Origin: an uncultured Candidatus Saccharibacteria bacterium
GTDB lineage: Bacteria; Patescibacteriota; Saccharimonadia; Saccharimonadales; Saccharimonadaceae
Assembly: GCA_964536265.1 (NCBI GenBank)
Contig: CAZHVV010000003.1
Location: 33,783 to 97,782, forward strand
Direction: 5' to 3'
DNA length: 64,000 nucleotides
A program made the position numbers and the translations under genes. Within the stretch, counting starts at the first letter, position 1; every line of letters begins with the position of its first letter. Under the pieces are notes generated by a model that saw only the letters and a program-made list of their open reading frames with translations, ran no database searches and was not told the origin of the DNA. Positions 20,639 through 64,000 of the stretch are shown here, piece by piece.

Positions 20639-22078
20639 TTAACGATACTGGCCTAAGACGTCGATTTGACCAGTTGTGCCACGAAGCGAAGAGAACCGGT
20701 AGTAGCCTGTATCTTGAGAGATATCGCTATTTCGTTGAGTAATAGATGAAGAAATAGTTGCGACAGTCTGAGTATTTCTCACTGCAGATGCAGACTGCAC
20801 ACCGAGCTGTGCAGGATATGCTGCAATACTCATACCAGCTGGTGCCGTGTACGTATAAGTACTACCACCACTAGTGATAGTAATATCAGCTGGAGCTACC
20901 AAAAACGTCAATGCCTCAACATAATTCCGTGCGGCCGACATAGAACCGCGTGGCCATTGGCTCATCGGCAGAGTGGTTGACCCCGTGATAGTGGCATCTA
21001 AAGTCTGCGGGCGATGAGAAAGGTAGATACAATCACGCAAGATTGTTGGATACTGACCTGTTTTCCACTTTGTTATGTAGTAGGCTGATATATCGAGATT
21101 TACCCACCCATTGCATGCCGATGGCGCCATAGGTGTCTCAGAAAAATCTGACCACGTCACCATCTGTACGTAGTCAGCGTTTTGTCCAATTGCCTTCTCC
21201 CACGCAGCACGTAAACTCCCTGTGTTGAGAGCTTCATCCCATAGCTGGGCTGGAGGACGGATATCTTGCGAGACTACTGGTGCCATGAATTTTTCCCCCC
21301 GAGCTAAGGCTGCGGGCTGGTAGTTACCTGCCGCATTTATCACACTCGGGTCTGCACCATATCCCCACACCGACGAAGCATAGCACAAACCAGTGTAGTT
21401 CGGAGCTTGATTCCAGTTAAGATAAACTGAGAAAAAGGCAATGTCAAGCCCCCAGGTCGTCAGCAGTTCATCAAATACCTGCTGCCACCACAAATATGTT
21501 TTGCCTTCTGTTAGGAAAGACCCAACAACGTAGCGCCCATCAGGCAAATAGTACGATCCGTTCTTGCCTGCATATTTTCTGATATGGTCCGCTGCCACTT
21601 GTGGAGTAGCAGCACCTGTGGCACCATTTGCGTCGACCATTGGCAGGACATAAAAACCAACATTCATATCATCAGCTGCCTGAACTAATTTCATATAGCG
21701 GTCGTAGTTAGAGCCTGATAATCCCAGAAGGTCACAGAAGAATCCATCAATCCCAGCCGCTTGTGCCTGTTCAATGTCCCAGACAGCATCTAAATACGTA
21801 TAGTCGCCGCCACGTTGCGGACGCCAAATGGGTCTATCGCGATACATACCACCATAATCTTGATACGTGGCATAATTAGGATTGTTGAATGCAGTCGTAT
21901 ACGAATCGGTTGCAAGCGTCACACTATCGTTCAACGAGCGAGGGTACGGTCCGAAATAGTGTGCGAAGACTTTTTTCGAGCTGCTATTCAGAACAGCATA
22001 ATCCATCGCGAACGGCAACCCTTCTGTCGCTTGCTGTCGAGTTCCTACCCTCTGCAACCTACGCGCACCTATACTCAT
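20639..22078 (-). CDS. Glycoside hydrolase family 71-like (alpha-1,3-glucanase / mutanase-like)
   Basis: 479 aa. The motif order matches my memory of GH71 mutanases: KKVFAHYF, AQAAGIDGFFCDLLG, FMAPVV, VQMVTWSDFSE, and the C-terminal ITITSGGSTYTYTAPAG block. No signal peptide was seen. Confidence 0.6.
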   Translation of the reverse strand: MSIGARRLQRVGTRQQATEGLPFAMDYAVLNSSSKKVFAHYFGPYPRSLNDSVTLATDSYTTAFNNPNYATYQDYGGMYRDRPIWRPQRGGDYTYLDAVWDIEQAQAAGIDGFFCDLLGLSGSNYDRYMKLVQAADDMNVGFYVLPMVDANGATGAATPQVAADHIRKYAGKNGSYYLPDGRYVVGSFLTEGKTYLWWQQVFDELLTTWGLDIAFFSVYLNWNQAPNYTGLCYASSVWGYGADPSVINAAGNYQPAALARGEKFMAPVVSQDIRPPAQLWDEALNTGSLRAAWEKAIGQNADYVQMVTWSDFSETPMAPSACNGWVNLDISAYYITKWKTGQYPTILRDCIYLSHRPQTLDATITGSTTLPMSQWPRGSMSAARNYVEALTFLVAPADITITSGGSTYTYTAPAGMSIAAYPAQLGVQSASAVRNTQTVATISSSITQRNSDISQDTGYYRFSSLRGTTGQIDVLGQYR

Positions 22079-23387: not shown

Positions 23388-25634
23388 CTATGGGCCAAAT
23401 GGGTCTACAAGACTGACGCCCGAAACCATAAAACCTGTTGCGCCTTTGCCGCGCGCCGTGGACACGGCAGTCATATCAGGACAGATATGCCCTGTCATAC
23501 GCTGACCATTCGTGCGATAACCTGCAAGCGTATCCCAGTCTCCTTGAGAAGCGTTGTAATCCATACCTATAAGTGTCCACTGATTTACGTATCCAGAGGT
23601 AAGTGAAGCGATGTCACTTGCATAAAAATAACCCCAGCGTTGATACCCTCGGTTCGCAAATGAGGTAGCAAAGGAAGTACTACCAACACCGTATGCCTTA
23701 CCAATAAAACGTTCATTACCTCCGTAGGAATCAAGTATATCGAGCAGTTCCTCGCGATACGTATTTGCATACTTAACGTCAACAATAAATAGATGATGGG
23801 CATAAGCGTCCAGTATGTCCTCGAGACGCGCATATGGACGGTTTGGCTGTGTGGTATTGTTCGCAGCCATTGAACCAAGTACTTGATACCCCTGGACTGT
23901 CGCCCACGTCATCGTTGATGCCGCAGGAAGTCCAGATGTGCCGGACGTGCGATTGATATCAGCGTCGTGTAGACCAAACCACACACCATCGGAAGTGCGT
24001 GCAAGCGACAATTCAAGGCAGCCAAAGCTGAGTAGGCCCGACTGTCCATAGGCAAATGCTGTCATTTCTGGAAAATCACGGCTTCCACCACGGTGAGCCA
24101 TATAGAATTCTGGTAATGCAAGCATGTCAGAAACTGTCGGATATCGCGGCAACATCTCACGCATACCGCTAATCTGCGTTAATATTCCACCAGTATCACC
24201 AACGCGGACATAGGCGTCCGACAAGATACCGCCCGTATCACCGAGTTTCGCCGTATAATCAGGTGGTAGCGTCCCTGTCGGACGAAATGCGACCGACAAC
24301 GCAACGGGTGCGGAAGGCGTCCCCGTCCATGCAATGTCAGTTTCCGTCGACCCGACTGTCGAAGCTGAGCCGGTGAGAGTACGAGAGCCGAGCCACATAT
24401 ACGTACGCGACGTAGATGCAACTAATCCTGCAGTTGCTAGTTCCGCAACGTTAGTAAAATTATCCGGGTAATTGGAGGGAATATGGTCATTTGTAGCAGT
24501 AAACTCACTCGCTGAAAACTCGAGAACAAGCGCCGGATCATTGGCAGTATATGACGGAATTGTTCTTCCGTTTGTTATGCCATCACCAGTTATGGAATTA
24601 TAATAGCCAGTCCATGCCGGATCTGCACCTCGTACAAGAAATAACGCACCCACCATTCGTGCCGTCGCGCCGACTGTAAAAGTATATGATACTGGCTCTG
24701 TCCCGGTGATTTCGTGCGTAAAAAAGCCAGTCACGCGTGCGGCACTGGAACTAGGACTAAAAGCAGGTCCAACTCGTGTAAAGGCAGCGTTTGTCCAATC
24801 CGTCGCAGATCCAGTTGCTTGTGACCGAAGTGCTGCAACCAGCAAATCCCCCGTCTGATAACCACTCGGTACTGTCAATGTAATCGTCGTGCTACTAGCT
24901 GTGACAACAGCGGTCTGAGCGGCACCCACAATAGTTGGTGCACTTGATGGCGGCACTATAATCGGTTCTAGCCAAATATGCCCAGCAAGACCATTATTGG
25001 TCTGTGGGTTTGGGTATGTCCAAGTAGTATTCCCCGATGAACCCGTAGCGGCCAACGTGTTATCGGCGATGCTCACAATCTGATCACCACCCCCGACAAC
25101 ATAAAATCGCTTTGTCATGGAATTATCGACAACAATATCCGTATCAATTTCAGCTGCCACAGTACGTTCAGTTGAAATCGACACCACGACTGAGTTAGCG
25201 GCCGTTGTCGTTACCGATGGTGCGATATTGGTAGTTGTCGTTGCATGACCATTGCGATCCCAAAAAACCCCTGCATACGCAGCCGAAACGCCACTGTACC
25301 AAACTAGCCGCCAGAACACTGAATAACCCGTTCCATCAAGCGGCCATGTATAACTAGTTTCACCAATTTCACGCCGTTTCATCCATACACCAGTCTGAAA
25401 GGCTGTCGTACCAGTCATAGGTGCAAATGAACGCACAATTGTCCAACCACTCAAATCACCAGGATAGTTAGAATCCACAGGTGCAGCACCGCCTGTGAAA
25501 ATAAGAATCATCCAATCGCCAACATTACATGCTACACCACCGGACCCACTGCCTCCGAGATTGGGGTTAATATCTACACTTGCAGTATCTACGGTAGTTC
25601 CACCGTAGCGATATCCGCTAAATACTACTGCCAT
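23388..25634 (-). CDS. Large tail-protein-like protein with a C-terminal glycerophosphodiester phosphodiesterase (GDPD) domain
   Basis: 748 aa. The N-terminal part has two similar ~220-aa beta-rich regions. The C-terminal part has EFYMAHRGGSRDFPEMTAFAY...CLELSLARTSDGVWFGLHDADINRTSG, matching the GDPD HRG...E...HD pattern. Confidence 0.65.
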   Translation of the reverse strand: MAVVFSGYRYGGTTVDTASVDINPNLGGSGSGGVACNVGDWMILIFTGGAAPVDSNYPGDLSGWTIVRSFAPMTGTTAFQTGVWMKRREIGETSYTWPLDGTGYSVFWRLVWYSGVSAAYAGVFWDRNGHATTTTNIAPSVTTTAANSVVVSISTERTVAAEIDTDIVVDNSMTKRFYVVGGGDQIVSIADNTLAATGSSGNTTWTYPNPQTNNGLAGHIWLEPIIVPPSSAPTIVGAAQTAVVTASSTTITLTVPSGYQTGDLLVAALRSQATGSATDWTNAAFTRVGPAFSPSSSAARVTGFFTHEITGTEPVSYTFTVGATARMVGALFLVRGADPAWTGYYNSITGDGITNGRTIPSYTANDPALVLEFSASEFTATNDHIPSNYPDNFTNVAELATAGLVASTSRTYMWLGSRTLTGSASTVGSTETDIAWTGTPSAPVALSVAFRPTGTLPPDYTAKLGDTGGILSDAYVRVGDTGGILTQISGMREMLPRYPTVSDMLALPEFYMAHRGGSRDFPEMTAFAYGQSGLLSFGCLELSLARTSDGVWFGLHDADINRTSGTSGLPAASTMTWATVQGYQVLGSMAANNTTQPNRPYARLEDILDAYAHHLFIVDVKYANTYREELLDILDSYGGNERFIGKAYGVGSTSFATSFANRGYQRWGYFYASDIASLTSGYVNQWTLIGMDYNASQGDWDTLAGYRTNGQRMTGHICPDMTAVSTARGKGATGFMVSGVSLVDPFGP

Positions 25635-25638
25635 AGTA

Positions 25639-27183
25639 TTAGGCCCTCATGACGTATAACGTACCGTATAGTGGCGTTGTTACATCCGCAAAGTCATCGA
25701 CAACCTGCACAGTATTTGTAATGCCTAATGTTGTGCGTGCCGCAGTCGCATCCGCTGCGGTCAACACCGCCCTACCCGTTACCGAACTGTCACTTATATC
25801 CGTCGCAACATGTGTATGGGCTGAAGCTGCTTTGCCGTCAAGCGTTGTTTGGAGATTTGTCGTGTCAGCAATAGTATGGCTATGCACAGCGGCGGCATAT
25901 GAGCCAGCAACCTGTTTCCCATCAAGCGCTGTTTGAAGTCCAGTTACATCTGAAATGGTGTGGCCATGCACAGCGGCGGCATATGAACCAGCGGCTTGTT
26001 TGCCATCGAGGGCTGTTTGGAGGCCGGTTGTATCTGAGATAGCGTGAGCATGAGTAGTCGCCGCTTTACCGTCAAGCGTGGTCTGAAGATTTGTGACGGT
26101 TGAGATTGCCTGTACACCGGTATGGTTGGTGCGATCAAGCAAGGTAACATCGCTACTATTTGCAGTTGCACCGGTTGCAATACTATTCAGTTTGGTTTTA
26201 TCGGCGGCTGACATCACGCCAGCATCGGTTACCGTTGCACTCGCAACAATTGCATCATTGCCAGTACTACTGACAACTGTTACGTCAGTGCTAGTGGTCG
26301 TTACACTTAGGTCGGTCACACCAGCACCTGGCGTAGCCGCTACTGTAGTAGTACCTGCGTTATCGTCATATGTAAGCGTCACATTTGTGCCAGCGACTAA
26401 ACTTGTGCCTATAATATCTTGAGTTGCCTCAGTAAAGTCAGTGATATCGGTTGCAATATGGCCATGCACAGCGGCGGCATATGAACCAGCTGCTTGTTTG
26501 CCATCGAGGGCTGTTTGGAGGCCGGTTGTATCTGAGATAGCGTGGCCATGAACAGCTGCTGCATAGGAGCCGGCTGCCTGTTTGCCATCGAGTGTCGTTT
26601 GAAGGTTGGTGACATCGGCTATTGCGTGAGCGTGTGAGGTATTGGCTTTGCCACTAAGGCTGGTGTCTACTTCTGTCTTCGTATAGGTTGTGGATTGGTT
26701 TGCTTTGCTATCAAGTGTCGTTTGGAGATTTGTCGTGTCAGCAATAGCATGGCCATGCACAGCTGCGGCGTATGACCCGGCAGCTTGTTTGCCATCGAGG
26801 GCTGTTTGGAGGCCAGTTGTATCTGAGATAGCGTGAGTATGTGAGGTATTGGCTTTGCCAGCGAGACCAGGAACGGTTGGAGATGCAGCAGTACCGCCAA
26901 GGTCACCTGTGAGCTGAACGATACCTTTGGTTGAAGAGGTGGCATCGGCAACGGTGCCTCCACTACCAGCATTAAGTTTTGCTTGAACTGTACTATCCAG
27001 TTTAGCTTCTGTGATAGATGCGTCGGTAACGGCAGCACTATCTACCGCCCCAGGAGCAAGTGATGCAGAGGTTATAATACTATCCTTAAGAGTACCATCG
27101 GCATTATGAACCGCCGAGAGGTAGTCGTTGAGGATCTGTCCCCAAGTGCCCGAGTCTGATCCCGGTTGTGGTAATCGCGGCAT
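25639..27183 (-). CDS. Phage-tail-fibre-like repeat protein (9 HxH repeats)
   Basis: It starts MPRLPQPGSDSGTWGQILNDYL (ATG 27183, RBS GGGAAGGG). It has repeats of the type SHTHAISDTTGLQTALDGKQAAGSYAAAVHGH and a SAADKTKLNSI motif. Confidence 0.7.
   Translation of the reverse strand: MPRLPQPGSDSGTWGQILNDYLSAVHNADGTLKDSIITSASLAPGAVDSAAVTDASITEAKLDSTVQAKLNAGSGGTVADATSSTKGIVQLTGDLGGTAASPTVPGLAGKANTSHTHAISDTTGLQTALDGKQAAGSYAAAVHGHAIADTTNLQTTLDSKANQSTTYTKTEVDTSLSGKANTSHAHAIADVTNLQTTLDGKQAAGSYAAAVHGHAISDTTGLQTALDGKQAAGSYAAAVHGHIATDITDFTEATQDIIGTSLVAGTNVTLTYDDNAGTTTVAATPGAGVTDLSVTTTSTDVTVVSSTGNDAIVASATVTDAGVMSAADKTKLNSIATGATANSSDVTLLDRTNHTGVQAISTVTNLQTTLDGKAATTHAHAISDTTGLQTALDGKQAAGSYAAAVHGHTISDVTGLQTALDGKQVAGSYAAAVHSHTIADTTNLQTTLDGKAASAHTHVATDISDSSVTGRAVLTAADATAARTTLGITNTVQVVDDFADVTTPLYGTLYVMRA
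26761..26955. repeat. 195-bp segment identical to 28111-28305
   Basis: Base-by-base comparison by eye. Both copies lie inside paralogous fibre-like genes and encode ...ADATSSTKGIVQLTGDLGGTAASPTVPGLAGKANTSHTHAISDTTGLQTALDGKQAAGSYAAA. Confidence 0.9.
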
Positions 27184-27199
27184 AGTATAACCCTTCCCT

Positions 27200-27676
27200 T
27201 TACGTAAAGTTGAGGCCAACGAGCGAGCCGAACCAAGTCGTACCGCCGTCGAGCGTTTCGAACACTAGGATATCAACCGCGTTTGCAGCTGTAGAAAGTG
27301 CCGGTGCACCGCCTGACCACTTAACACTGGCTGGCCACGTAACAACTCTGCCCCCAGTCGCATCTTGTTTTAAATAGAGTGAGAACGAACAGGCTTTACC
27401 ACTGGTCGCTCCGCTGAGCACGAAAGTCGTTGTGCCTGTTAGTGTCATATTAAAAACATTAGCATTTGCAAGATTAAGTGTTGTCGTCCCAGTAGCATTG
27501 GCGGTTGAGACTGTCTCAAGACCACCACTGGTCGCCATCGCAACCATCCCAATCGGGTTCGAATTATTCCATTTGCTTGTTGTGCTATTGAATTTCAGCA
27601 AATCACCACTGGATTGGCCCGACATGAAAACGTCTGTTGCGCTAGATATCGTACTTCCTGTTCCGCTAAATGGCAT
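27200..27676 (-). CDS. Small tail-associated-like protein (module B N-terminus)
   Basis: 158 aa. MPFSGTGSTISSATDVFMSGQSSGDLLKFNSTTSKWNN is homologous to the start of the 152-aa proteins at 59907 and 62491. The C-terminal part has YLKQDATGGRVVTWPASVKWSGGAPALS. Confidence 0.6.
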   Translation of the reverse strand: MPFSGTGSTISSATDVFMSGQSSGDLLKFNSTTSKWNNSNPIGMVAMATSGGLETVSTANATGTTTLNLANANVFNMTLTGTTTFVLSGATSGKACSFSLYLKQDATGGRVVTWPASVKWSGGAPALSTAANAVDILVFETLDGGTTWFGSLVGLNFT

Positions 27677-27690
27677 ACTTTATGTCCTTT

Positions 27691-29181
27691 TTATCGATAC
27701 CAGTTGATTCCATCACTCCAATAATCGCGACTATCGTATTGGTTATTGAGTGTATCCGTACCAACGGCTACAGCATCGATGTATGAGCCACCTGGCGCTG
27801 CAACCTGCAATCCATTACCAGCTGCACTCAGCCGCTTGACTCTGACGAGACCGTTCGCAACTGGTGAAGGTAGAGTAATCGTTATACCAGTGCTCGTCGT
27901 GTCAACAAGCATACAGTCATTGTTCGCTGCAGTCGCTGAAGCAGTATTGATAGAGCGGAAGGTAAACGTATATCCTCCCCCGCCCCCACCTGCAGGTGTT
28001 GCCCATGTACCATCACCGCGTAGGTAGGTGGTGCCATTTGCCGTACCTGAACCAAGCCGGGCAGTCGCTACTGTGCCAGACGTGATATCTGCAGCAGCGT
28101 GAGTATGAGTAGCTGCGGCGTATGACCCGGCAGCTTGTTTGCCATCGAGGGCTGTTTGGAGGCCAGTTGTATCTGAGATAGCGTGAGTATGTGAGGTATT
28201 GGCTTTGCCAGCGAGACCAGGAACGGTTGGAGATGCAGCAGTACCGCCAAGGTCACCTGTGAGCTGAACGATACCTTTGGTTGAAGAGGTGGCATCGGCA
28301 ACGGTAGTAGTTGGTAGTTGAGCAGTAGGTACTTTACCTGTGCCGTCAAGTGTAGCCACACCATTTACAGCACCCTTCTGGGATGCATCAAGCTTCGCAC
28401 TCAAGCTTGTAGACAGGCCAGTGACACTTGCTTGAGGCAAAGAGCCACCCATATTCGCAAGGTTGAAGTTAGCTTCACTTACATCAAGTGCTATGCGGTC
28501 ATTCGCAACATCGTTCGTAACCGTCACTTTAGTTGAGGCGGCCCCTATACTGCGTAGCTCGAAATTAACGCCAGTTTTCTGTTTGTAAACTCCAACGCCA
28601 GTACCAATGTTGCTCGCTGTGTTTGCTTCGCCACCGCCACCAGCCGCAGGTGCCGTAATCCACTCGAAGCCCGTACCGTTGTAGCTAAGGAGTTCGCCTG
28701 TTGCAGGAGCATCAGAATTGAGCTGAGCAGGAATAAGACTACCGTTTGGCACTGTACCGGATGCATTGAGTTTTGCTTGCGCAGCAGCGTCAAGTTTTAT
28801 TTCTGTAATCGAACCGTCAACTATCTTTGTTGTCGTAACTGCGTTGTCGGCAAGCTTCGTATCAGTTACAGCAGAGCCAGCAAGCGCAGTCGTATCGACA
28901 GCACCCGCAACAAGTTGTGCATTTGGGATAGTACCCGACAAATCACCACCAAGCGCACCACTGACTGTATTGAGCTTTGCCTGCGCGGACGCATCAAGCT
29001 TCGCTTCGGATATACTGCCATCCGATACAATTGACGCGTCAACCGCACCAGGCGCAAGCACGCTTGTCGTGACAATATTATCTTTCAGTGAACCATCAGT
29101 CTTGTGTGATTGGGTAAGGAAGTCATTGAGGATTTGCCCCCAAGTGCCCGAGTCTGATCCTGGTTGTGGTAATCGCGGCAT
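27691..29181 (-). CDS. Phage-tail-fibre-like protein (module A N-terminus)
   Basis: 496 aa starting MPRLPQPGSDSGTWGQILNDFL. It has HxH repeats and TYLRGDGTWATP. The RBS is AAGAGGAGGAG. Confidence 0.7.
   Translation of the reverse strand: MPRLPQPGSDSGTWGQILNDFLTQSHKTDGSLKDNIVTTSVLAPGAVDASIVSDGSISEAKLDASAQAKLNTVSGALGGDLSGTIPNAQLVAGAVDTTALAGSAVTDTKLADNAVTTTKIVDGSITEIKLDAAAQAKLNASGTVPNGSLIPAQLNSDAPATGELLSYNGTGFEWITAPAAGGGGEANTASNIGTGVGVYKQKTGVNFELRSIGAASTKVTVTNDVANDRIALDVSEANFNLANMGGSLPQASVTGLSTSLSAKLDASQKGAVNGVATLDGTGKVPTAQLPTTTVADATSSTKGIVQLTGDLGGTAASPTVPGLAGKANTSHTHAISDTTGLQTALDGKQAAGSYAAATHTHAAADITSGTVATARLGSGTANGTTYLRGDGTWATPAGGGGGGYTFTFRSINTASATAANNDCMLVDTTSTGITITLPSPVANGLVRVKRLSAAGNGLQVAAPGGSYIDAVAVGTDTLNNQYDSRDYWSDGINWYR
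28111..28305. repeat. 195-bp segment identical to 26761-26955
   Basis: See the partner entry. Confidence 0.9.
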
Positions 29182-29267: not shown

Positions 29268-29480
29268 TCATGAATTTGTTGCTCGGCCACCATAGGTGCT
29301 GGCGCCATAACCCTGGTTACTGCTTTTTGATGTATCACTTAATTTCCCCAAATTACCGAAAGACTGCAATAAGAAGCCACCACCTGCAACAAATAGGGCC
29401 ATTGTTGCAACGTGTTGCAAGAACTCCTTACGGTTCATTTCCTTTTGTAGAAGTGTGTTGAGTGCTGCTGGTGTCTTCAT
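29268..29480 (-). CDS. Small protein with a Tat-like (RK) signal segment
   Basis: 70 aa. NRKEFLQHVATMALFVAGGG resembles S/T-R-R-x-F-L-K followed by an h-region. The tail is G/S/Y-rich. Confidence 0.45.
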   Translation of the reverse strand: MKTPAALNTLLQKEMNRKEFLQHVATMALFVAGGGFLLQSFGNLGKLSDTSKSSNQGYGASTYGGRATNS

Positions 29481-29568: not shown

Positions 29569-30615
29569 TTATGACATTATGATGAAACCATCGAGCGAAC
29601 GCGACATCGATAACTGAGGTGTGACGGACCGTGCTGACTGACGACGTGGCGCGACCGGCTGCTTCGGTCGATACGAAATAGAACGTTCCGGGTACCGTAT
29701 GTGGCGCTGCGCTACAAGCATACCGTCAACACTTCGAGGTTGCTGTGATATTACAGCAACAGGTAGTTGAGGCGCAACTTCTCGCAAGACAGGTATTGGG
29801 CGCGTACCTATCGCAGGTGCTGCCTGCTCTACGACAACTCGCGATTGTATGACACCATGTTTCTTACGACGATGCCTTACCCACAGAAGCACGATGCCAA
29901 TTTGGTACATAACTACCATTGGTGAGGCGAGCAGCGCTTGATTGAGTGCATCGGGCGTTGGTGAGATAAGAGCAGCAATAATGAATGAGCCTATCAGGAT
30001 ATGCCCCTGGTATCCCATCAACTTCTTTGGAGGCAATGGCGTAGCGGCATCGGCAATCATCATCACAAGCGGTATCTGGAACAATAGCGCACCTGCAAGC
30101 ATGTACGTCATAATGAACGCAAAGTATGAGTCAATCGTCAGCATTGGGTTGATATGGTACAGGTCAAAGCCAGTCAAGAAATACAGTGCGGCTGGCAAAC
30201 TAACGACATACGCGAAGGCAATCCCTGTTAGCGCCAACACGAACGATGCGACCGTGTAGAGCAATACGCGCTTGATATGTACCTGTTTCATAACTGGCAT
30301 AATGAATCGATAAAAATGATAGATAATAACAGGAAGTGAGGCAATGAAGCCAATATACATACAAACTTTTATAATGAAGCTGAACGCACCACCAGGCGTG
30401 AGATAGACGAGCTCGTTATCCTTGCCAAGGGGCGCAACTAACAGGTTGACGATTTTGTCAAAAAACGGATATGCTGCTGCCGAAAAAACAACAAATGTAA
30501 TTGCGACAGCAAAAAGTCGACCCTGCAACTCGCGGACGTGGTCCATAAAAGTTGGCAGGGTCGTCCGATTATCTATAGTCAGGTTATGACTTTTTTTCTG
30601 TTTCTTTCGTCTCAC
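29569..30615 (-). CDS. tatC: Twin-arginine translocase subunit TatC with a ~100-aa C-terminal extension
   Basis: MDHVRELQGRLF...six TM segments. The true start may be ATG 30546 (MDHV), since the longer form overlaps tatA. Confidence 0.85.
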   Translation of the reverse strand: MRRKKQKKSHNLTIDNRTTLPTFMDHVRELQGRLFAVAITFVVFSAAAYPFFDKIVNLLVAPLGKDNELVYLTPGGAFSFIIKVCMYIGFIASLPVIIYHFYRFIMPVMKQVHIKRVLLYTVASFVLALTGIAFAYVVSLPAALYFLTGFDLYHINPMLTIDSYFAFIMTYMLAGALLFQIPLVMMIADAATPLPPKKLMGYQGHILIGSFIIAALISPTPDALNQALLASPMVVMYQIGIVLLWVRHRRKKHGVIQSRVVVEQAAPAIGTRPIPVLREVAPQLPVAVISQQPRSVDGMLVAQRHIRYPERSISYRPKQPVAPRRQSARSVTPQLSMSRSLDGFIIMS

Positions 30616-30760
30616 TTGATTTGTCGTCCTTCATCGCTCCACGCAATTCTTTTGCAGATGAGCCGATGCTCTTCGCTAACTCTGGCAACTTCTTTGCTCC
30701 AAAGAGTAATAGCAGAATAACCAAGATGACAATTAGTTCTGGTGCGCCAATATTGGGCAT
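30584..30760 (-). CDS. tatA: Twin-arginine translocase subunit TatA/E (58 aa, below the track cut-off)
   Basis: My own translation reads MPNIGAPELIVILVILLLLFGAKKLPELAKSIGSSAKELRGAMKDDKSSETKETEKKS. The RBS is AAGGGAGAA. Confidence 0.8.
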   Translation of the reverse strand: MPNIGAPELIVILVILLLLFGAKKLPELAKSIGSSAKELRGAMKDDKSSETKETEKKS

Positions 30761-30834: not shown

Positions 30835-31053
30835 ATGTATTATAAACATCTATCACAATTCGCCGACACCTACGACTGCAGTACGTATGGGTCTGGCTCG
30901 TTCAACGTAGACGAAACGTGTACAACAACGACTGGTGTTGACCTTTCTGCTACTGGCACAAACATTGCCATTGGCGCAGGTATAGGTCTTATCTTGATTG
31001 TTGCCGCAATCGTAATGCTTGTTCGACTTCGCAAGAAGAGTGTAAAGAACTAA
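30835..31053 (+). CDS. Small protein with a sorting-signal-like C-terminus
   Basis: 72 aa ending ...DLSATGTNIAIGAGIGLILIVAAIVMLVRLRKKSVKN. That is an LxxTG-like motif, a hydrophobic span and a basic tail. Confidence 0.45.
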   Translation: MYYKHLSQFADTYDCSTYGSGSFNVDETCTTTTGVDLSATGTNIAIGAGIGLILIVAAIVMLVRLRKKSVKN

Positions 31054-40288: not shown

Positions 40289-41446
40289 TTAGTACCAGCG
40301 ACCGTAAGCAGATAGAGTAAAGGTGGTATTAGAACTAGTCGAACGATATAGGTGAAACCTTGCAATTGTCAGGAGATTCGCGCTATCAGTTACGGCCACG
40401 CTAATGTTTTGCGGAACAGTAGACCTAGCAATAGCCATAGGAACTGGATCGGTAATAAATGCATGTGGATATGTCCAGTTGTAGGTAACCGTTGTCGAAC
40501 TAATACTGATAGTTATTTCGTTCTTACATTCAAGGCGCCCGTCTGGGTACTTGTAGTACGTGCCGTCGGCGTTGGTCCCTGTCGTGTACGGAGCAGCCCC
40601 CCGGGGTACATAGACCCAACTAGACCACACGCTATTATACCTGTTTCGATATACAATGCAGTCGGTCGAAATATAAGGAATCCCAACTTGAGTAACGTTA
40701 CTACTATTATAGGTATATGTTTGTACGTAGTAGTATCCGCCGCCCGGACCTTGTGGCTGTGTGCCGAGCATTAAGTTCGTGTGCAGCCCCTCTGCCGTCA
40801 GTGTATCCCAGCTAACAGACGTTCCGGAGACGGCAGTGGTACGAAAATGCCTTTGATCCACTGCTACCGGAATGGCATTTAGCTGTGTCTGAATCGCACT
40901 CGTTACTCCATCAATGAAATTGATTTCAGCCACTGTTGCAGTAACACCAGTGATGTCAGCTGGCACGTGTGCGTGAGCGAAGTCGGTAATGTTGGCTTTG
41001 ACGTGGGTATGGCTTGAGGCGGCGTATGAACCTGCTACTTGCTTGCCGTTCAGCTGTGTCTGAATCGCACTCGTTACTCCATCGACATAGTTGAGTTCCG
41101 TTACTGTAGCGGTGACATCAGTAACATTTGCGAGAGTATGGGTGTGGCTTGTGTTAGCCTTGCCAGCCAGACCGGGAACGGTTGGCGCTGCGGCGGTACC
41201 ACCGAGATCGCCCGCAAGCTGGACAACACCTTTTGCAAGTGTTGTTGCATCCGGGGCACCAGCATTCAACTTCGTTTGAACTGCAAGAGCTAGCTTCGCT
41301 TCAGTTATGGCCGTGTCTGTAACACTAGTCGTGGTGACGGCATTGTTTTTGAGGCTTCCGTCAGTATTGTGGGCGACAGCCAAGAAGTCATTGAGGACAT
41401 TTCCCCATGTATCATCATCGCTACCTGGCGTTGGCAATCGTGCCAC
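40289..41446 (-). CDS. Phage-tail-fibre-like protein (module A N-terminus, third paralogue)
   Basis: 385 aa starting (GTG)ARLPTPGSDDDTWGNVLNDFLAVAHNTDGSLKNN. It has three HxH motifs and a distinct W/Y-rich C-terminal domain. The RBS is GGAGGGG. Confidence 0.7.
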   Translation of the reverse strand: MARLPTPGSDDDTWGNVLNDFLAVAHNTDGSLKNNAVTTTSVTDTAITEAKLALAVQTKLNAGAPDATTLAKGVVQLAGDLGGTAAAPTVPGLAGKANTSHTHTLANVTDVTATVTELNYVDGVTSAIQTQLNGKQVAGSYAASSHTHVKANITDFAHAHVPADITGVTATVAEINFIDGVTSAIQTQLNAIPVAVDQRHFRTTAVSGTSVSWDTLTAEGLHTNLMLGTQPQGPGGGYYYVQTYTYNSSNVTQVGIPYISTDCIVYRNRYNSVWSSWVYVPRGAAPYTTGTNADGTYYKYPDGRLECKNEITISISSTTVTYNWTYPHAFITDPVPMAIARSTVPQNISVAVTDSANLLTIARFHLYRSTSSNTTFTLSAYGRWY

Positions 41447-59834: not shown

Positions 59835-60364
59835 CATTGCTATTGTGACTAACAGATACATTCTGTATACTAGCCATAAGAAATTTGTTCGAAAGAGGGG
59901 TATAGTATGCCATTCACGGGAGCAGGAACCGGAATACAGAACGCTGATGACGTATTTTTCAGCGGGACAACCAATGGAGAACTACTAAAGTACAATGGCG
60001 GCACTGCCAAATGGAATAATGCCGGACTGGCCAAAGCTGATATTGGCCTCGGGAATGTCGACAATACTTCAGATGCAAATAAGCCTATTTCCAGTGCAAC
60101 TCAGACGGCACTCAATGCAAAAGCTAGTACCTCTCATACGCACACTGCAGCAGACGTAGGTGTTCTCACACTTACTCAAGCTGCTCCAGGCGCACGATTT
60201 ACATGCCTATGGAATTCTGGCACAAGTAAATGGGCCTACAATGGAACAGACTTAAATGCTCGCCCTAGCGGTCGTACCGACATCTTCTTCGACCTGATAG
60301 GAGCTCCAGCCGCAACCGCCGATCCAGTGTGGGCAATTGCGGGCGACATGCGCAAGGATGTGTA
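59835..60364 (+). repeat. 530-bp perfect direct repeat, copy 1 (promoter + 152-aa gene)
   Basis: Identical by eye to 62419-62948 (offset 2584 nt). Identity ends inside the stop codon (TAG versus TAA). Confidence 0.95.
59843..59871 (+). promoter_or_regulatory. Candidate promoter of cassette 1
   Basis: TTGTGA, 17 nt, TATACT, with TG just upstream of the -10 box. The SD GAGGGG precedes ATG 59907. Confidence 0.45.
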
Positions 60365-60365
60365 G
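59907..60365 (+). CDS. Tail-fibre-like small protein (module B N-terminus), copy 1
   Basis: 152 aa: MPFTGAGTGIQNADDVFFSGTTNGELLKYNGGTAKWNN, GLGNVDNTSDANKPISSATQTALNAK, SHTH. Confidence 0.7.
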   Translation: MPFTGAGTGIQNADDVFFSGTTNGELLKYNGGTAKWNNAGLAKADIGLGNVDNTSDANKPISSATQTALNAKASTSHTHTAADVGVLTLTQAAPGARFTCLWNSGTSKWAYNGTDLNARPSGRTDIFFDLIGAPAATADPVWAIAGDMRKDV

Positions 60366-60373
60366 TGAGTAGT

Positions 60374-61414
60374 ATGTCAGTCCAAGAGTGGTTGCGAACG
60401 TCAAACGGTTGGGAGTCGCGCGGCAGGCTCATTCGTACTGTAAATAGCCGCTCAAGTCTCGTGTATGGTACCTATCTTCCTGACTCTAGCACCACAGGTA
60501 TTATGTCTGCTCCAACGACAACAATCACGACCAATTCGACCTATAGCGATACCAGCGGCACGATAAAACTAATAGAGGATACTGAGTTTCAAGGCCACGT
60601 GTACGTGACTGGCAAAAACTACACATTCCGAAATTGCTTTTTCTCAGGACCCGTAGCCGGAATAACCGACTCTATAGTGCAATTACGCTACGCCTCAAGT
60701 TCAGGAAACCGGTTCGAGGATTGCACCTTCTGCCCACAAACTGCCACCAATGGCGTGAACTGTCTCCAGGGCCGTGGCTTTGTGGCATTGCGCTGCAATG
60801 TATACGGTTCAATCGATGGCATTGACCCAGCCCCTGCCGATACAGATACCCGCGTAGACGTTGAAATCCAACAATGTTACATCCACGACCTAGTACGATA
60901 CTGCCCGTATGCCGGGCAGAGCGACAACCAGACACATACCGACGCGATTCAGTGGATGGGTGGCCTCGGACTAACACTACGTGGCAACCGAATCGAGAAT
61001 CTGCTCGATACGGTAAAGGGTACGGGTTGGTCGGCGCCTACATACGATGGTAACTCCGTTCTAACTGGAGGACACTCTTTTTATCCGAGTCACCCTGTCG
61101 GTACTGCAGCTGTGATGATTAATGCCCTCAATAACGTGATTCAACCCGGTGAACTTATCATGCAAAAAAACTGGATTCGAGGTGGCGCAGTCGGCATCAA
61201 TAGTCTTGGTGTGGCGCTGGCTTGGAACAGTAACGACGGAATCACCGATATATCGGATAATTGGATTCTCAATGACCAAGGTTTCGGTACCAATAATCGA
61301 TGGGTTGGTAAAGCCTCGCAGACCGGACTCAGCTTTGGCACTAACTACCTTTGGAATACCAGCAGTCCACTTGATACCTCTACTATTCTATCTACTTTTA
61401 AGGTGAATGCATGA
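60374..61414 (+). CDS. Right-handed beta-helix (pectate-lyase-fold) depolymerase-like protein
   Basis: The N-terminus MSVQEWLRTSNGWESRGR parallels the 62955 gene. It has repetitive N/G/C-containing turns (FRNCFFSG, FEDCTF, LRCNVYG, QQCYIHD, LRGNRIEN). ATG 60374 is preferred over the track start at 60329. Confidence 0.6.
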   Translation: MSVQEWLRTSNGWESRGRLIRTVNSRSSLVYGTYLPDSSTTGIMSAPTTTITTNSTYSDTSGTIKLIEDTEFQGHVYVTGKNYTFRNCFFSGPVAGITDSIVQLRYASSSGNRFEDCTFCPQTATNGVNCLQGRGFVALRCNVYGSIDGIDPAPADTDTRVDVEIQQCYIHDLVRYCPYAGQSDNQTHTDAIQWMGGLGLTLRGNRIENLLDTVKGTGWSAPTYDGNSVLTGGHSFYPSHPVGTAAVMINALNNVIQPGELIMQKNWIRGGAVGINSLGVALAWNSNDGITDISDNWILNDQGFGTNNRWVGKASQTGLSFGTNYLWNTSSPLDTSTILSTFKVNA

Positions 61415-62370
61415 GCCAGATTCGCAATACCTTTTCCGGTAACAATGGTGATGCCTGTACTATCACAAATACCCAGATGGACGTAGTTGCCACTGGTGGT
61501 ACCGCTACTATTTCTACTGCTCAAGCGTGGATTGGCTCACTGTCAGCTCTCATGACCGCCACTACCACTAGTGGTATCTTAGCCCTATCGAAGAACATTA
61601 GCTCAACTACACTTGCAGCCGATTTGTACGTATATGTAACTGCTGCCCCCTCTGCAGCAGTACCAATCATCGCATTCTTTGGTGCCTCGAGGAGCATATC
61701 AGTCGAACTCAATGCGAACCGTACCCTCAGCATTAAAGACCGACCATTTACCACCATATGGACCTCCGCTGCAGCAATCCCACTCAACACATGGTACAGA
61801 GTGGGGCTATACGCAACCCAGGACAGTACAAACGGTACAGTTCGCGCCGCCATGTGGTCTGGTAACAACAGCACTCCAGAGGTAAACGGAGATTCTGGCT
61901 TATTGACTGGTCGTAATACCGGCCCTGAGGCGTACGCTTCACTCCGAGTTGGGCCAAAATCCTCCACAGGCACACAAACCGCGACTATGTATGTTGGCTC
62001 AACATCATACGATACCGCCGCAACTGATCTTCCTGCCCCATATGGAATGCCAGTCCTCACTCTCACCCCATCACCCTCAATTATTTTTCCTGGTGATACC
62101 TGTACCCTCACTGCGACAGCCACAGATAGCGACGGCATAGCATCAACCAACTGGTCGACGACTATTGGAACCTTAGTGGGTAGTGGTACTACCCGCACAC
62201 TCACCGCCCCTGCTAACCTCAATGACCAGACAGCGACCGTTACGTTCAGTGCTACCGATACTCTTGGCAATACAAGCAATATTACCGCAGACGTCACAAT
62301 GAAAGCATCAATGTCTAAGTTTTACGATGGGACAACTTGGATACCCTTAATCGAAAACTTGATTACGTAA
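61411..62370 (+). CDS. LamG/ConA-like jelly-roll plus Ig-like domain protein
   Basis: 319 aa, coupled to the upstream gene by ATGA. It contains LNTWYRVGLYATQDSTNGTVRAAMWSG and the C-terminal TLTATATDSDG...TVTFSATDTLGN. Confidence 0.55.
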   Translation: MSQIRNTFSGNNGDACTITNTQMDVVATGGTATISTAQAWIGSLSALMTATTTSGILALSKNISSTTLAADLYVYVTAAPSAAVPIIAFFGASRSISVELNANRTLSIKDRPFTTIWTSAAAIPLNTWYRVGLYATQDSTNGTVRAAMWSGNNSTPEVNGDSGLLTGRNTGPEAYASLRVGPKSSTGTQTATMYVGSTSYDTAATDLPAPYGMPVLTLTPSPSIIFPGDTCTLTATATDSDGIASTNWSTTIGTLVGSGTTRTLTAPANLNDQTATVTFSATDTLGNTSNITADVTMKASMSKFYDGTTWIPLIENLIT

Positions 62371-62418
62371 CTTCACGGATTCCCGTAAACTCAGCTTGCT
62401 CATACCACACGGACAGAG

Positions 62419-62948
62419 CATTGCTATTGTGACTAACAGATACATTCTGTATACTAGCCATAAGAAATTTGTTCGAAAGAGGGGTATAGTATGCCATTCA
62501 CGGGAGCAGGAACCGGAATACAGAACGCTGATGACGTATTTTTCAGCGGGACAACCAATGGAGAACTACTAAAGTACAATGGCGGCACTGCCAAATGGAA
62601 TAATGCCGGACTGGCCAAAGCTGATATTGGCCTCGGGAATGTCGACAATACTTCAGATGCAAATAAGCCTATTTCCAGTGCAACTCAGACGGCACTCAAT
62701 GCAAAAGCTAGTACCTCTCATACGCACACTGCAGCAGACGTAGGTGTTCTCACACTTACTCAAGCTGCTCCAGGCGCACGATTTACATGCCTATGGAATT
62801 CTGGCACAAGTAAATGGGCCTACAATGGAACAGACTTAAATGCTCGCCCTAGCGGTCGTACCGACATCTTCTTCGACCTGATAGGAGCTCCAGCCGCAAC
62901 CGCCGATCCAGTGTGGGCAATTGCGGGCGACATGCGCAAGGATGTGTA
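62419..62948 (+). repeat. 530-bp perfect direct repeat, copy 2
   Basis: See copy 1. Confidence 0.95.
62427..62455 (+). promoter_or_regulatory. Candidate promoter of cassette 2 (identical sequence)
   Basis: Same TTGTGA, 17 nt, TATACT as in copy 1. Confidence 0.45.
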
Positions 62949-62949
62949 A
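62491..62949 (+). CDS. Tail-fibre-like small protein, copy 2 (identical 152 aa)
   Basis: The track translation is identical to 59907-60365. Confidence 0.7.
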   Translation: MPFTGAGTGIQNADDVFFSGTTNGELLKYNGGTAKWNNAGLAKADIGLGNVDNTSDANKPISSATQTALNAKASTSHTHTAADVGVLTLTQAAPGARFTCLWNSGTSKWAYNGTDLNARPSGRTDIFFDLIGAPAATADPVWAIAGDMRKDV

Positions 62950-62954
62950 GGGAT

Positions 62955-64000
62955 ATGCCAAAGCAACTCATCCAACAATGGATACGAAAGCCCAATGGAT
63001 GGTACTCGAGAGGGCGAACTCCTCGGTCTGGGGACGACAGGTCGCTCCTCGTACGAGGCGCATATATTCCAGATGACACAACAACAGGACCAGTATTGGG
63101 CTCAACTTTTAGTGACCAGGCAGCAAATGGTGTCGGGATTATTAGTTTAACAACGACAAATTTGATTTGCGAGAATATGACGCACTGGGGAGAGGTTCGC
63201 CACCAAGCTCCCGGTATCAGCCACAACAACTGCCGCTTCGCAGGAGCAGACTTCAATCTCATGTACGGTGGGACCTACGGTGCCACTGGTGCGGGATACC
63301 TTGTAAAATCATACGGTGGATCATCATATTACCACTGGACAGCAGAGAATTGTCTTTTCGACCCATGGCTATGGGTTACTGAAAGAGGCAGGACTGCAAT
63401 GACAGACGCCACCTATGTCCACATTGATGGAATTGAGGGTGGAGACTGCGAACTACGCTGGTGTCGTATTCGTAATGTCGTCGACGGCGTACACTTCCTT
63501 CATCAAGAAAACATCACTGACGCTGGAAATAGCGGGTATTCTGAAGCTGGATTTAGCGCACCTGCGGGACAACGCTTCTGTGTTGTCGACCGTTGCCTTC
63601 TTGAAAAGTCTTCGTACGTTGCTGGTGAAACATATCGCGCACGCCCCGGTGCGCAGATCCAAGATGCTCGACCTCACTCTGATGGCATTCAGATTATGCA
63701 GGGAAAGAATCTGCTAGTCGCTGGTAGCATGATTGGTGGAGTACGAGACAGTGTCGGTTACACGACGTGGCCAAATACTGGTGATCCAGGCAACACGGGA
63801 ACTGACTTTTCGAATGCCGCCCTTATGATTAAGCAGGAAGGAACCTTCACTTCAGGTGATGTTGCATGGATTAATAACATTGTCGTCGACAAGAGCTTCT
63901 TGGGCGGTGGAGGAACGTTCTGCGTTAACTTCTTCGTCGGTAGTGGTAATACTCTTACAGGTGTTACAATCAAGGACACTAAGATTCTAGAACGCAAATA
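62955..64000 (+). CDS. Second beta-helix depolymerase-like protein; partial, runs off the right edge
   Basis: Absent from the track because there is no stop in the window. My own translation is open for 348 codons: MPKQLIQQWIRKPNGWYSRGRTPRSGDDRSLLVRGAYIPDDTTTGPV...HNNCRFAG...ENCLFDP...LRWCRIRNVVDG... Confidence 0.6.
   Translation, partial: MPKQLIQQWIRKPNGWYSRGRTPRSGDDRSLLVRGAYIPDDTTTGPVLGSTFSDQAANGVGIISLTTTNLICENMTHWGEVRHQAPGISHNNCRFAGADFNLMYGGTYGATGAGYLVKSYGGSSYYHWTAENCLFDPWLWVTERGRTAMTDATYVHIDGIEGGDCELRWCRIRNVVDGVHFLHQENITDAGNSGYSEAGFSAPAGQRFCVVDRCLLEKSSYVAGETYRARPGAQIQDARPHSDGIQIMQGKNLLVAGSMIGGVRDSVGYTTWPNTGDPGNTGTDFSNAALMIKQEGTFTSGDVAWINNIVVDKSFLGGGGTFCVNFFVGSGNTLTGVTIKDTKILERK

Follow-up and report, generated by a model that had tools for sequence, protein, structure and literature searches.

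Multi-tailspike phages (K1-5/SP6, CBA120, G7C) join a conserved N-terminal anchor to interchangeable receptor-binding or depolymerase parts. In hitchhiker co-export by the twin-arginine translocation (Tat) system a signal-less folded partner crosses the membrane on a signal-bearing one, as with the hydrogenase-2 HybO/HybC and DMSO reductase DmsA/DmsB pairs of E. coli, the known carriers being full enzyme subunits with one fixed partner each. Features of the first, and possibly of the second, are seen in a family of fibre-like proteins with a common N-terminal head, module A, encoded in a 64,000-nucleotide stretch of DNA (C3:33783-97782, the window) from an 879 kb genome (0.88 Mb, 16 contigs) marked by gene content and relatives as that of a Saccharibacterium. 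The closest described system is the mosaic adhesive trimer (MAT) fibre family of Bdellovibrio bacteriovorus, a predator of bacteria with 21 chromosomal phage-tail-fibre-like genes (Caulton et al. 2024, PMC10769870). In the MATs a Sec signal peptide precedes a beta-rich domain of ~130 aa, and 13 of the 21 end in an S74 chaperone-protease. Their N-terminal domain is invariant, with swappable tips, and is presumed to attach to a surface element of the predator itself, as yet unidentified (PMC10769870).

The module-A family resembles the MATs in being multigene and in joining an N-terminus that is invariant to C-terminal tips that are variable and mosaic. It differs in having neither the Sec signal nor the ~130-aa beta-rich domain, the head being only 35-45 residues with a helix, in that no S74 domain was found in module-A proteins and in its co-occurrence with Tat and a mini-protein that ends in a Tyr/Gly (YG) peptide. 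Like the anchors of phage tail fibres and tailspikes, module A is a conserved attachment part and is present in genuine phage tail modules, behind the gene for the tape measure, but it lacks any Pfam, PHROG or PDB model and has no virion to attach to in this genome. With the Tat hitchhikers it would have in common a signal-less protein crossing on a carrier with a twin-arginine signal, from genes that adjoin those of the translocase or one another; the proposed carrier differs in being a signal-anchor of 58-75 residues with a peptide tail, serving a whole fibre family via the common head. The mini-protein, of ~70 residues, is also matched near end-to-end by the NCBIfam family NF038009 (TatB_1), the name of which records Tat association but no link to fibre proteins.

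As ultra-small epibionts, Saccharibacteria must recognise and hold specific host bacteria. The known players in host attachment are type IV pili and a few adhesins only (PMC10633639, PMC11623550), and papers on Saccharibacteria adhesion name type IV pili, the type IV secretion system (T4SS) and adhesins without mention of module-A fibres. Literature searches on DUF5907, Saccharibacteria tail fibres and the Saccharibacteria twin-arginine system turned up no account of the module-A family or of its Tat link, with one paper stating that Tat is rare among Saccharibacteria. A large and fast-evolving set of receptor-binding fibres of phage type would be a second candidate for host recognition in these bacteria.

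Module A and the fibre family

The original prediction, made from the sequence of the window, held that module A heads the genes starting at 27183, 29181 and 41446. This was borne out for all three, each on the minus strand, and the Tat genes lie directly upstream of the second. The features are:

tatA, 30584..30760, minus strand: 58 aa; promoter-like site at 30824-30797
tatC, 29569..30615, minus strand: Pfam TatC, 161.8 bits
Mini-protein, 29268..29480, minus strand: 70 aa; NRKEFLQ Tat-signal-like motif, hydrophobic stretch, polar linker and GYGASTYGG end; 86 nt upstream of A2
A2, 27691..29181, minus strand: 496-aa fibre-like protein; module A at 29047-29181; DUF5907 and PTR repeats; small C-terminal tip
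A1, 25639..27183, minus strand: 514-aa fibre-like protein; module A at 27049-27183; seven PTR repeat stretches (144 bits)
A3, 40289..41446, minus strand: 385-aa fibre-like protein; module A head; GTG start; alone among housekeeping genes

The true start of A1 is by homology the ATG at 27183, with the mechanical start of its open reading frame (ORF) a TTG at 27219. A genome-wide scan added two more copies, C6:46853 (272 aa) and C6:61369 (301 aa), such that five genes of the genome start with module A (consensus M-x-RLP-x-PGSD-x-G-x-WG-x-ILND-x-L..H..DG-x-LK), at five spots in three contig regions with phage structural neighbours at none. Aligned over 45 residues with ten relatives from the databases, the five paralogues give 59-80% identity and 14 invariant columns (n=15). 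In an alignment of 76 sequences the mean frequency of the commonest residue falls from 0.84 in the first ten-residue block through 0.76 and 0.71 to 0.60 in the fourth, later blocks having 0.26-0.51 with a weaker second peak at residues 61-70.

Searched against 1.84 billion proteins, a profile of module A matched 6279 clusters (50% identity) with E<=1e-3, of which 4270 had E<=1e-10. This is far beyond chance, and the heads are strictly N-terminal: the match starts at residue 1 in ~146 of the top 150 hits and by residue 7 in all but one. Module-A-headed proteins range from 49 to 1316 aa in length. Among species-representative genomes the best 80 of 357 module-A loci are almost all from Saccharibacteria, often with several copies per genome, and 41 relatives carry from 0 to 16 copies each. 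MAG contigs with module A labelled as Chloroflexi, Acidobacteriota, Sulfuriferula or Parcubacteria are probably mis-binned, their G+C of 0.47-0.54 and gene content being Saccharibacteria-like. The module alone (first 45-90 residues) gave zero matches in Pfam (E<=10), PHROGs v4 (E<=1) and PDB sequences (E<=10). As a classical Sec, Tat or sortase signal it was ruled out on its sequence, having one Arg, no hydrophobic stretch and its LPxPG at the N-terminus.

When A2 residues 1-130 were modelled as a monomer with AlphaFold (pTM = 0.32), confidence was high from residue 11 to residue 70 (block means 78-93) and a helix was placed at 13-25. The best-conserved part, residues 1-10, reached no more than 57, in line with an arm that depends on a partner for its order.

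Phage relatives and the YG peptide

Almost certainly, module A serves a family of cellular fibres as an N-terminal joint of phage type. All proteins with a head module match phage tail-fibre families, and in Streptomyces phages (n=6) module A is found at the N-terminus of a gene. On one viral contig (L016) terminase, portal, capsid, major tail and tape measure genes are followed without a gap by a gene for a 207-aa module-A protein. Scanning IMG/VR with the Saccharibacteria-type profile gave 2 loci and a second scan with phage-type heads 27 loci. In several of these the module-A gene comes directly after one whose product was confirmed as tape measure, as in L111 and L125. The position of the gene directly after that for the tape measure indicates that the head belongs to tail-tip fibres.

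The neighbouring phage genes also carry a candidate for what the head binds. A YG-rich terminus facing the module-A gene was seen in 10 of 31 adjacent phage genes and at 4 of 493 other termini of the same loci (Fisher 1e-10), with MRAYGDDLYGGGTYGD, MPSVYAVGPYGSSLYG, ...AYGSGTYGSGTYGGT and ...TYGSGLYGEGLYSK as examples. In the whole Saccharibacterium genome the YG motif occurs at only 2 of 1956 ORF termini, one of which is the mini-protein directly upstream of A2. Judged from gene adjacency, what phage module A most likely fits onto is a short Tyr/Gly-rich peptide, on the end of the neighbouring tail protein that faces it, and this pairing may define an undescribed tail-fibre joint in actinophages. 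The tips of the fibres match actinophage tail proteins and could as such hint at the hosts used by each lineage.

Co-occurrence with the Tat genes

Profiles were surveyed in 201 genomes of the order that are at least 90% complete, following an earlier set of 41 relatives. Module A was present in 76 of the 201, TatC in 80 and the mini-protein in 81, with all three together in 72. The pairwise counts are:

Module A and TatC: both 74; module A only 2; TatC only 6; neither 119; Fisher 5e-45
Module A and mini-protein: both 74; module A only 2; mini-protein only 7; neither 118; Fisher 6e-44

The Fisher values take no account of shared ancestry and treat the genomes as more independent than they are, yet the pattern of module A with Tat across dozens of families is still strong. 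Among the 41 relatives, 19 had module A, TatC and mini-protein and 21 had none, the remaining one (82% complete) having module A only. Presence states are mixed inside genera g1, g21, g52 and g55, indicating many gains or losses, and many copies of module A are distant from tatC or on a different contig, and still are gone where Tat is absent.

In the window the order on the minus strand is lepA, tatA, tatC, the 70-aa ORF, A2, B1, A1, the GDPD protein, hrcA and grpE, with dnaK further on, and all genes discussed here are surrounded by housekeeping genes. The block from the divergent 72-aa ORF beside tatA to the GDPD gene (~7.7 kb, between lepA and hrcA) is one presence/absence unit. Two genomes of the same genus (G005 and G007) lack module A, TatC and mini-protein, and in G005 the gap from lepA to hrcA is 66 nt. 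In 79 related module-A loci the recurrent neighbours include tatC (10), hrcA (9), grpE (9), dnaK (7) and lepA (6), the recurrence of housekeeping neighbours showing that the same chromosomal site is used across families.

The restriction of module A almost entirely to genomes with the Tat island makes the island probably the shared docking and export partner. The original prediction had found no scaffold evident in the window; this was probably wrong, since the YG-tailed Tat mini-protein, tatC and tatA lie directly upstream of A2 and co-occur with module A near-perfectly. On gene position and distribution, the best scaffold candidate is probably the YG-tailed Tat signal-anchor together with TatAC, encoded beside the fibres. 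The accompanying proposal, that conserved heads dock on a common scaffold and present variable tips, fits module A (strictly N-terminal, with varied tails, and at the tail tip next to the tape measure) and does not extend to the second head, module B, described below.

The mini-protein and the Tat system

The mini-protein belongs to a family, with relatives in the same place in other genomes. Its members have in common a [DN]R[KR]xFL[KQR] motif, ~17 hydrophobic residues in a row, a polar linker and an end in which Y..YG is invariant (GYGxSxYGG). Most members have R-K rather than R-R at the motif, with RR versions in two loci (L027 and L040). NF038009, annotated as "twin-arginine translocation system-associated protein", was matched by 8 of 8 mini-proteins with E values of 3e-14 to 3e-17 and almost end-to-end. 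With 53 bits (E 3e-14) the mini-protein of the window stays below the curated cut-off of 100, which places it outside the curated family, and none of the 8 members was shown to exceed the cut-off. The generic Tat-signal model TIGR01409 gave weak matches in 3 of 8, and there were also weak hits to Rieske Tat anchors.

Of what a hitchhiker route calls for, the locus has TatA, TatC (161.8 bits) and a twin-arginine-type signal on one putative partner, the NRKEFLQ mini-protein. No hydrophobic N-terminal signal was seen on inspection of the sequences of the A, B and adjacent enzyme proteins. In TatC, E15 and E103 (E. coli numbering) form the twin-arginine binding site. Aligned to E. coli TatC, the TatC of the window keeps E15 and F94, and no acidic residue was found at or near E103 in any of 10 Saccharibacteria TatC sequences, that of the window included. 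No terminator-like site was found on the minus strand between the tatA promoter-like site and 24001, and the arrangement is consistent with one transcript running from tatA to the GDPD gene.

A second YG protein is encoded on the other side of tatA:

72-aa mini-protein, 30835..31053, plus strand: Cys/YG motif TYDCSTYGSGSF; LSATG sortase-like sorting signal; divergent from tatA

Its two Cys residues, and an LSATG signal with a hydrophobic stretch and then an RK-rich tail behind it, make it look like a sortase substrate. Strong full-length relatives are present in ~27 of the 201 genomes, and those whose positions were compared adjoin tatC or the mini-protein gene.

A model for export and anchoring

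These observations can be drawn together in a model in which Saccharibacteria have kept a large phage-derived fibre and receptor-binding family as chromosomal genes, and in which a 70-aa protein, little beyond an uncleaved Tat signal-anchor, carries the same kind of YG peptide as the neighbours of the phage fibres. The signal-less fibres would fold and trimerise in the cytoplasm, dock through module A on the YG tail of the mini-protein, cross the membrane piggy-back through the TatAC translocase and remain tethered at the cell surface. There the variable fibre tips, and the adjacent enzymes without a head (GDPD, beta-helix and BNR proteins), would bind or cut polymers of the envelope of the host bacterium. 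Physical binding of head to peptide, Tat-dependent export, surface display and host targeting are accordingly predictions from gene content and arrangement. We put the chances that the whole is right, with module A a phage tail joint on a YG peptide reused for Tat-linked export and anchoring of signal-less host-binding fibres, at about even.

A bolder version of the model is held more tentatively, and we rather doubt it as a whole. Here the mini-protein would be a signal peptide in trans, one free-standing Tat signal-anchor of ~70 residues with a phage-derived YG peptide, on which every pre-folded module-A fibre would dock by its head. Together with a re-tuned TatAC (lacking E103 and accepting R-K), it would export and tether an interchangeable set of fibres for host recognition and their enzyme partners, some of which the second YG mini-protein, with its sortase-type signal, would fix to the cell wall. 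Should the Tat link prove causal, an entire protein family would be secreted by means of one shared, detachable signal, which would be a new mode of secretion and would explain the patchiness of Tat in the phylum.

Several points weigh against the reading of the mini-protein and TatAC as docking and export partner. Long trimeric fibres are an unusual Tat cargo, and the model gives module B proteins and the head-less enzymes no demonstrated exit route. The co-occurrence could in part stem from physical linkage, one indel block taking in tatAC together with the mini-protein and the first fibres, and in 8 of the 201 genomes only one of module A and TatC is present. The Tat system is not private to the fibres, a second likely substrate being encoded at C7:29023 (plus strand), a 333-aa hydrolase-like protein with a GLSFGG motif and a canonical SRRGFFK signal (SRRGFFKQVGTVGLVAAAAVA). 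The name of NF038009, a Tat-associated "TatB_1", means that the mini-protein may be a subunit of the translocase and not an escort. Finally, related phages inflate the count of YG-rich facing termini, from which about six or seven independent lineages remain.

Alternative explanations

Module A could do no more than cap the fibre at its N-terminus or start its trimerisation, or dock on some other element of the surface, with Tat and the mini-protein co-travelling in an accessory island, or Tat exporting a different required component, and with the fibres leaving by lysis of some cells, vesicles or an unrecognised system. We consider this unlikely. The behaviour of the tatA-to-GDPD block as a single presence/absence unit between lepA and hrcA and the other canonical Tat substrate in the genome are in keeping with it, as is the example of Bdellovibrio, where the MAT fibres also have an invariant N-terminal domain and an unidentified surface partner (PMC10769870). 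Against it stand the dispersed copies of module A far from tatC, which vanish along with Tat in 119 of the 201 genomes, only 2 genomes having module A without TatC, the recurrent YG-terminus adjacency in phages and the cell, and the low confidence of the monomer model for residues 1-10, the most conserved.

It is improbable that module A acts as a targeting signal of a non-canonical type, recognised without an escort by a divergent TatAC in which TatC lacks the recognition residue E103, with the mini-protein an accessory translocase or receptor subunit. The single Arg of module A and its lack of an F-L-K motif and of a hydrophobic stretch are at odds with such a role, as is its functioning in phage virions, outside any Tat context, even though it is strictly N-terminal in the manner of a signal and TatC without an acidic residue at or near E103 is the rule in the 10 Saccharibacteria sequences. 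The match of the mini-protein to NF038009 TatB_1 would suit a translocase subunit, but at 53 bits it falls short of the cut-off of 100, and the RK/RR-x-FLK motif, typical of substrates, is on the mini-protein itself. Co-occurrence also speaks in its favour, being as strong for module A with TatC as with the mini-protein.

A reading of the genes as prophage remnants or phage cargo, with module A docking only on a phage tail and without a cellular role, would suit the PHROG tail-fibre matches of the proteins, the presence of module A in phage tail modules and the patchy distribution of 0-16 copies per genome, but is very improbable given that capsid, portal, terminase, tape measure and integrase genes are at none of the window's loci, that the recurrent neighbour clusters at the 79 related loci are of housekeeping genes and pilins only, that the hrcA-tatC chromosomal site is conserved across families, that reading frames are intact across 76 of the 201 genomes and that the Tat link would be left unexplained. 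None of the five module-A and four module-B loci lies within a phage structural module, housekeeping or enzyme genes being around each, and a single prophage was ruled out, the copies lying at separate sites among housekeeping genes without phage structural genes nearby.

Tails and tips

The original prediction also held that the sequence downstream of the heads differs completely within each set. This is true of the C-terminal tips, which are unrelated, and not of what precedes them, since A1, A2 and A3 have common blocks of PTR (PF12789) and DUF5907 (PF19264) repeats and two of the module-B genes are the same. The repeats pass the Pfam gathering thresholds with 144.2 bits for PTR in A1, 28.7 for PTR in A2 (cut-off 27) and 28.8 for DUF5907 in A3. 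The fibre proteins are mosaic, with unrelated tips. A block of 218 nt is 95% identical between A1 and A2 (26738-26955 and 28088-28305), which suggests recent recombination or gene conversion between the fibre genes.

The tails of 83 module-A-headed proteins were assigned with Pfam, with the following counts:

DUF5907: 14 proteins
GDSL lipase/esterase: 13 proteins
Pectate-lyase-like: 10 proteins
Collagen: 9 proteins
Beta-helix: 4 proteins
BppL_N: 4 proteins
Polysaccharide deacetylase: 3 proteins
PTR: 3 proteins
DUF2961: 2 proteins
Mtd_N, GDPD, BNR and Phage_tail_C: 1 protein each

By these domain assignments the tails of module-A proteins represent a phage receptor-binding repertoire. Enzymes that lack a head adjoin the fibre genes, namely a GDPD phosphodiesterase, beta-helix-like proteins with Ig/PKD partners and a BNR protein. 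That of the fibre string is:

GDPD protein, 23388..25634, minus strand: 748 aa, head-less; C-terminal GDPD phosphodiesterase domain; last gene of the fibre string; without signal peptide

It begins MAVVFSGYRYGG, a Tyr/Gly-rich sequence loosely like the YG peptides, and this start might be a docking site for a fibre.

Module B

Module B (consensus MPF-x-G-x-G..DVF-x-SG..LLK-x-N..KWNN) had been reported at the heads of the genes at 27676, 59907 and 62491, where it was found in each case:

B1, 27200..27676, minus strand: 158 aa; module B at ~27563-27676; residues 74-158 a widespread phage tail-fibre tip
B2, 59907..60365, plus strand: 152 aa; module B head; in repeat copy 59835-60364; beta-helix-like gene, then Ig/PKD gene downstream
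B3, 62491..62949, plus strand: identical to B2; in repeat copy 62419-62948; diverged beta-helix-like paralogue downstream

The last two are one identical gene. A perfect direct repeat of 530 bp (59835-60364 = 62419-62948) holds both B2 and B3, which at 100% identity count as one observation. B1 and B2 have 22 of the first 38 residues in common and little afterwards. B1 matches phrog_9017 "tail fiber protein" over nearly its entire length, its last 85 residues matching tail-fibre tips in 457 phage records, and the PTR score of B2 is 17.2 bits, under the cut-off of 27. A fourth copy, B4 (141 aa), was found at C2:57288, with a tip common to A-headed proteins of other genomes. In C2:54261-57710, B4 is divergent from a beta-helix-like gene (396 aa) and a gene for a 567-aa protein with two lectin-like repeats and a PKD domain, the same three-part set as at 59907-64000 of the window.

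Treating module B as a docking module on a par with module A was not upheld, given that it is rare, resembles a generic internal fibre-shaft motif and has two of its three copies in the window duplicated. Its profile was found in only 6 of the 201 genomes, module A being present in all six. In one genome (G118) a B-like motif is internal to A-headed fibres, ~90 residues past the head, and in PHROG families the module-B motif matches internal positions. At four other Saccharibacteria loci a B-headed gene comes directly after an A-headed gene, one being a conserved 158-aa orthologue of B1. From these positions module B is best seen as a shaft segment sometimes serving as a start, and not as a second general docking module. 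It would then be a rarer alternative start drawn from a fibre-shaft motif, heading short tip proteins behind A-headed fibres or before depolymerase-like genes.

Other observations

A contig assigned to Mycolicibacterium agri (L027, NZ_PDCP01000104.1) carries at 508-1353 an RR-type Tat mini-protein gene followed stop-to-start (TAG, ATG) by a module-A gene, which degenerates after ~140 residues; the flanks are AT-rich within a contig of 61% G+C. The piece could have passed from a Saccharibacterium to a bacterium that is possibly its host, or could have arisen as a chimera in assembly.

Genes for type IV pilin-like proteins (GFTIVELLIV start) lie within 6 kb of module-A genes in two clusters, in 6 and 5 of the 79 loci (L036, L044 and others). 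At the heat-shock locus of the window a GH71-like gene (20639-22078) lies between dnaK and grpE, without a counterpart in the same-genus genome G005, and may be another accessory insert.

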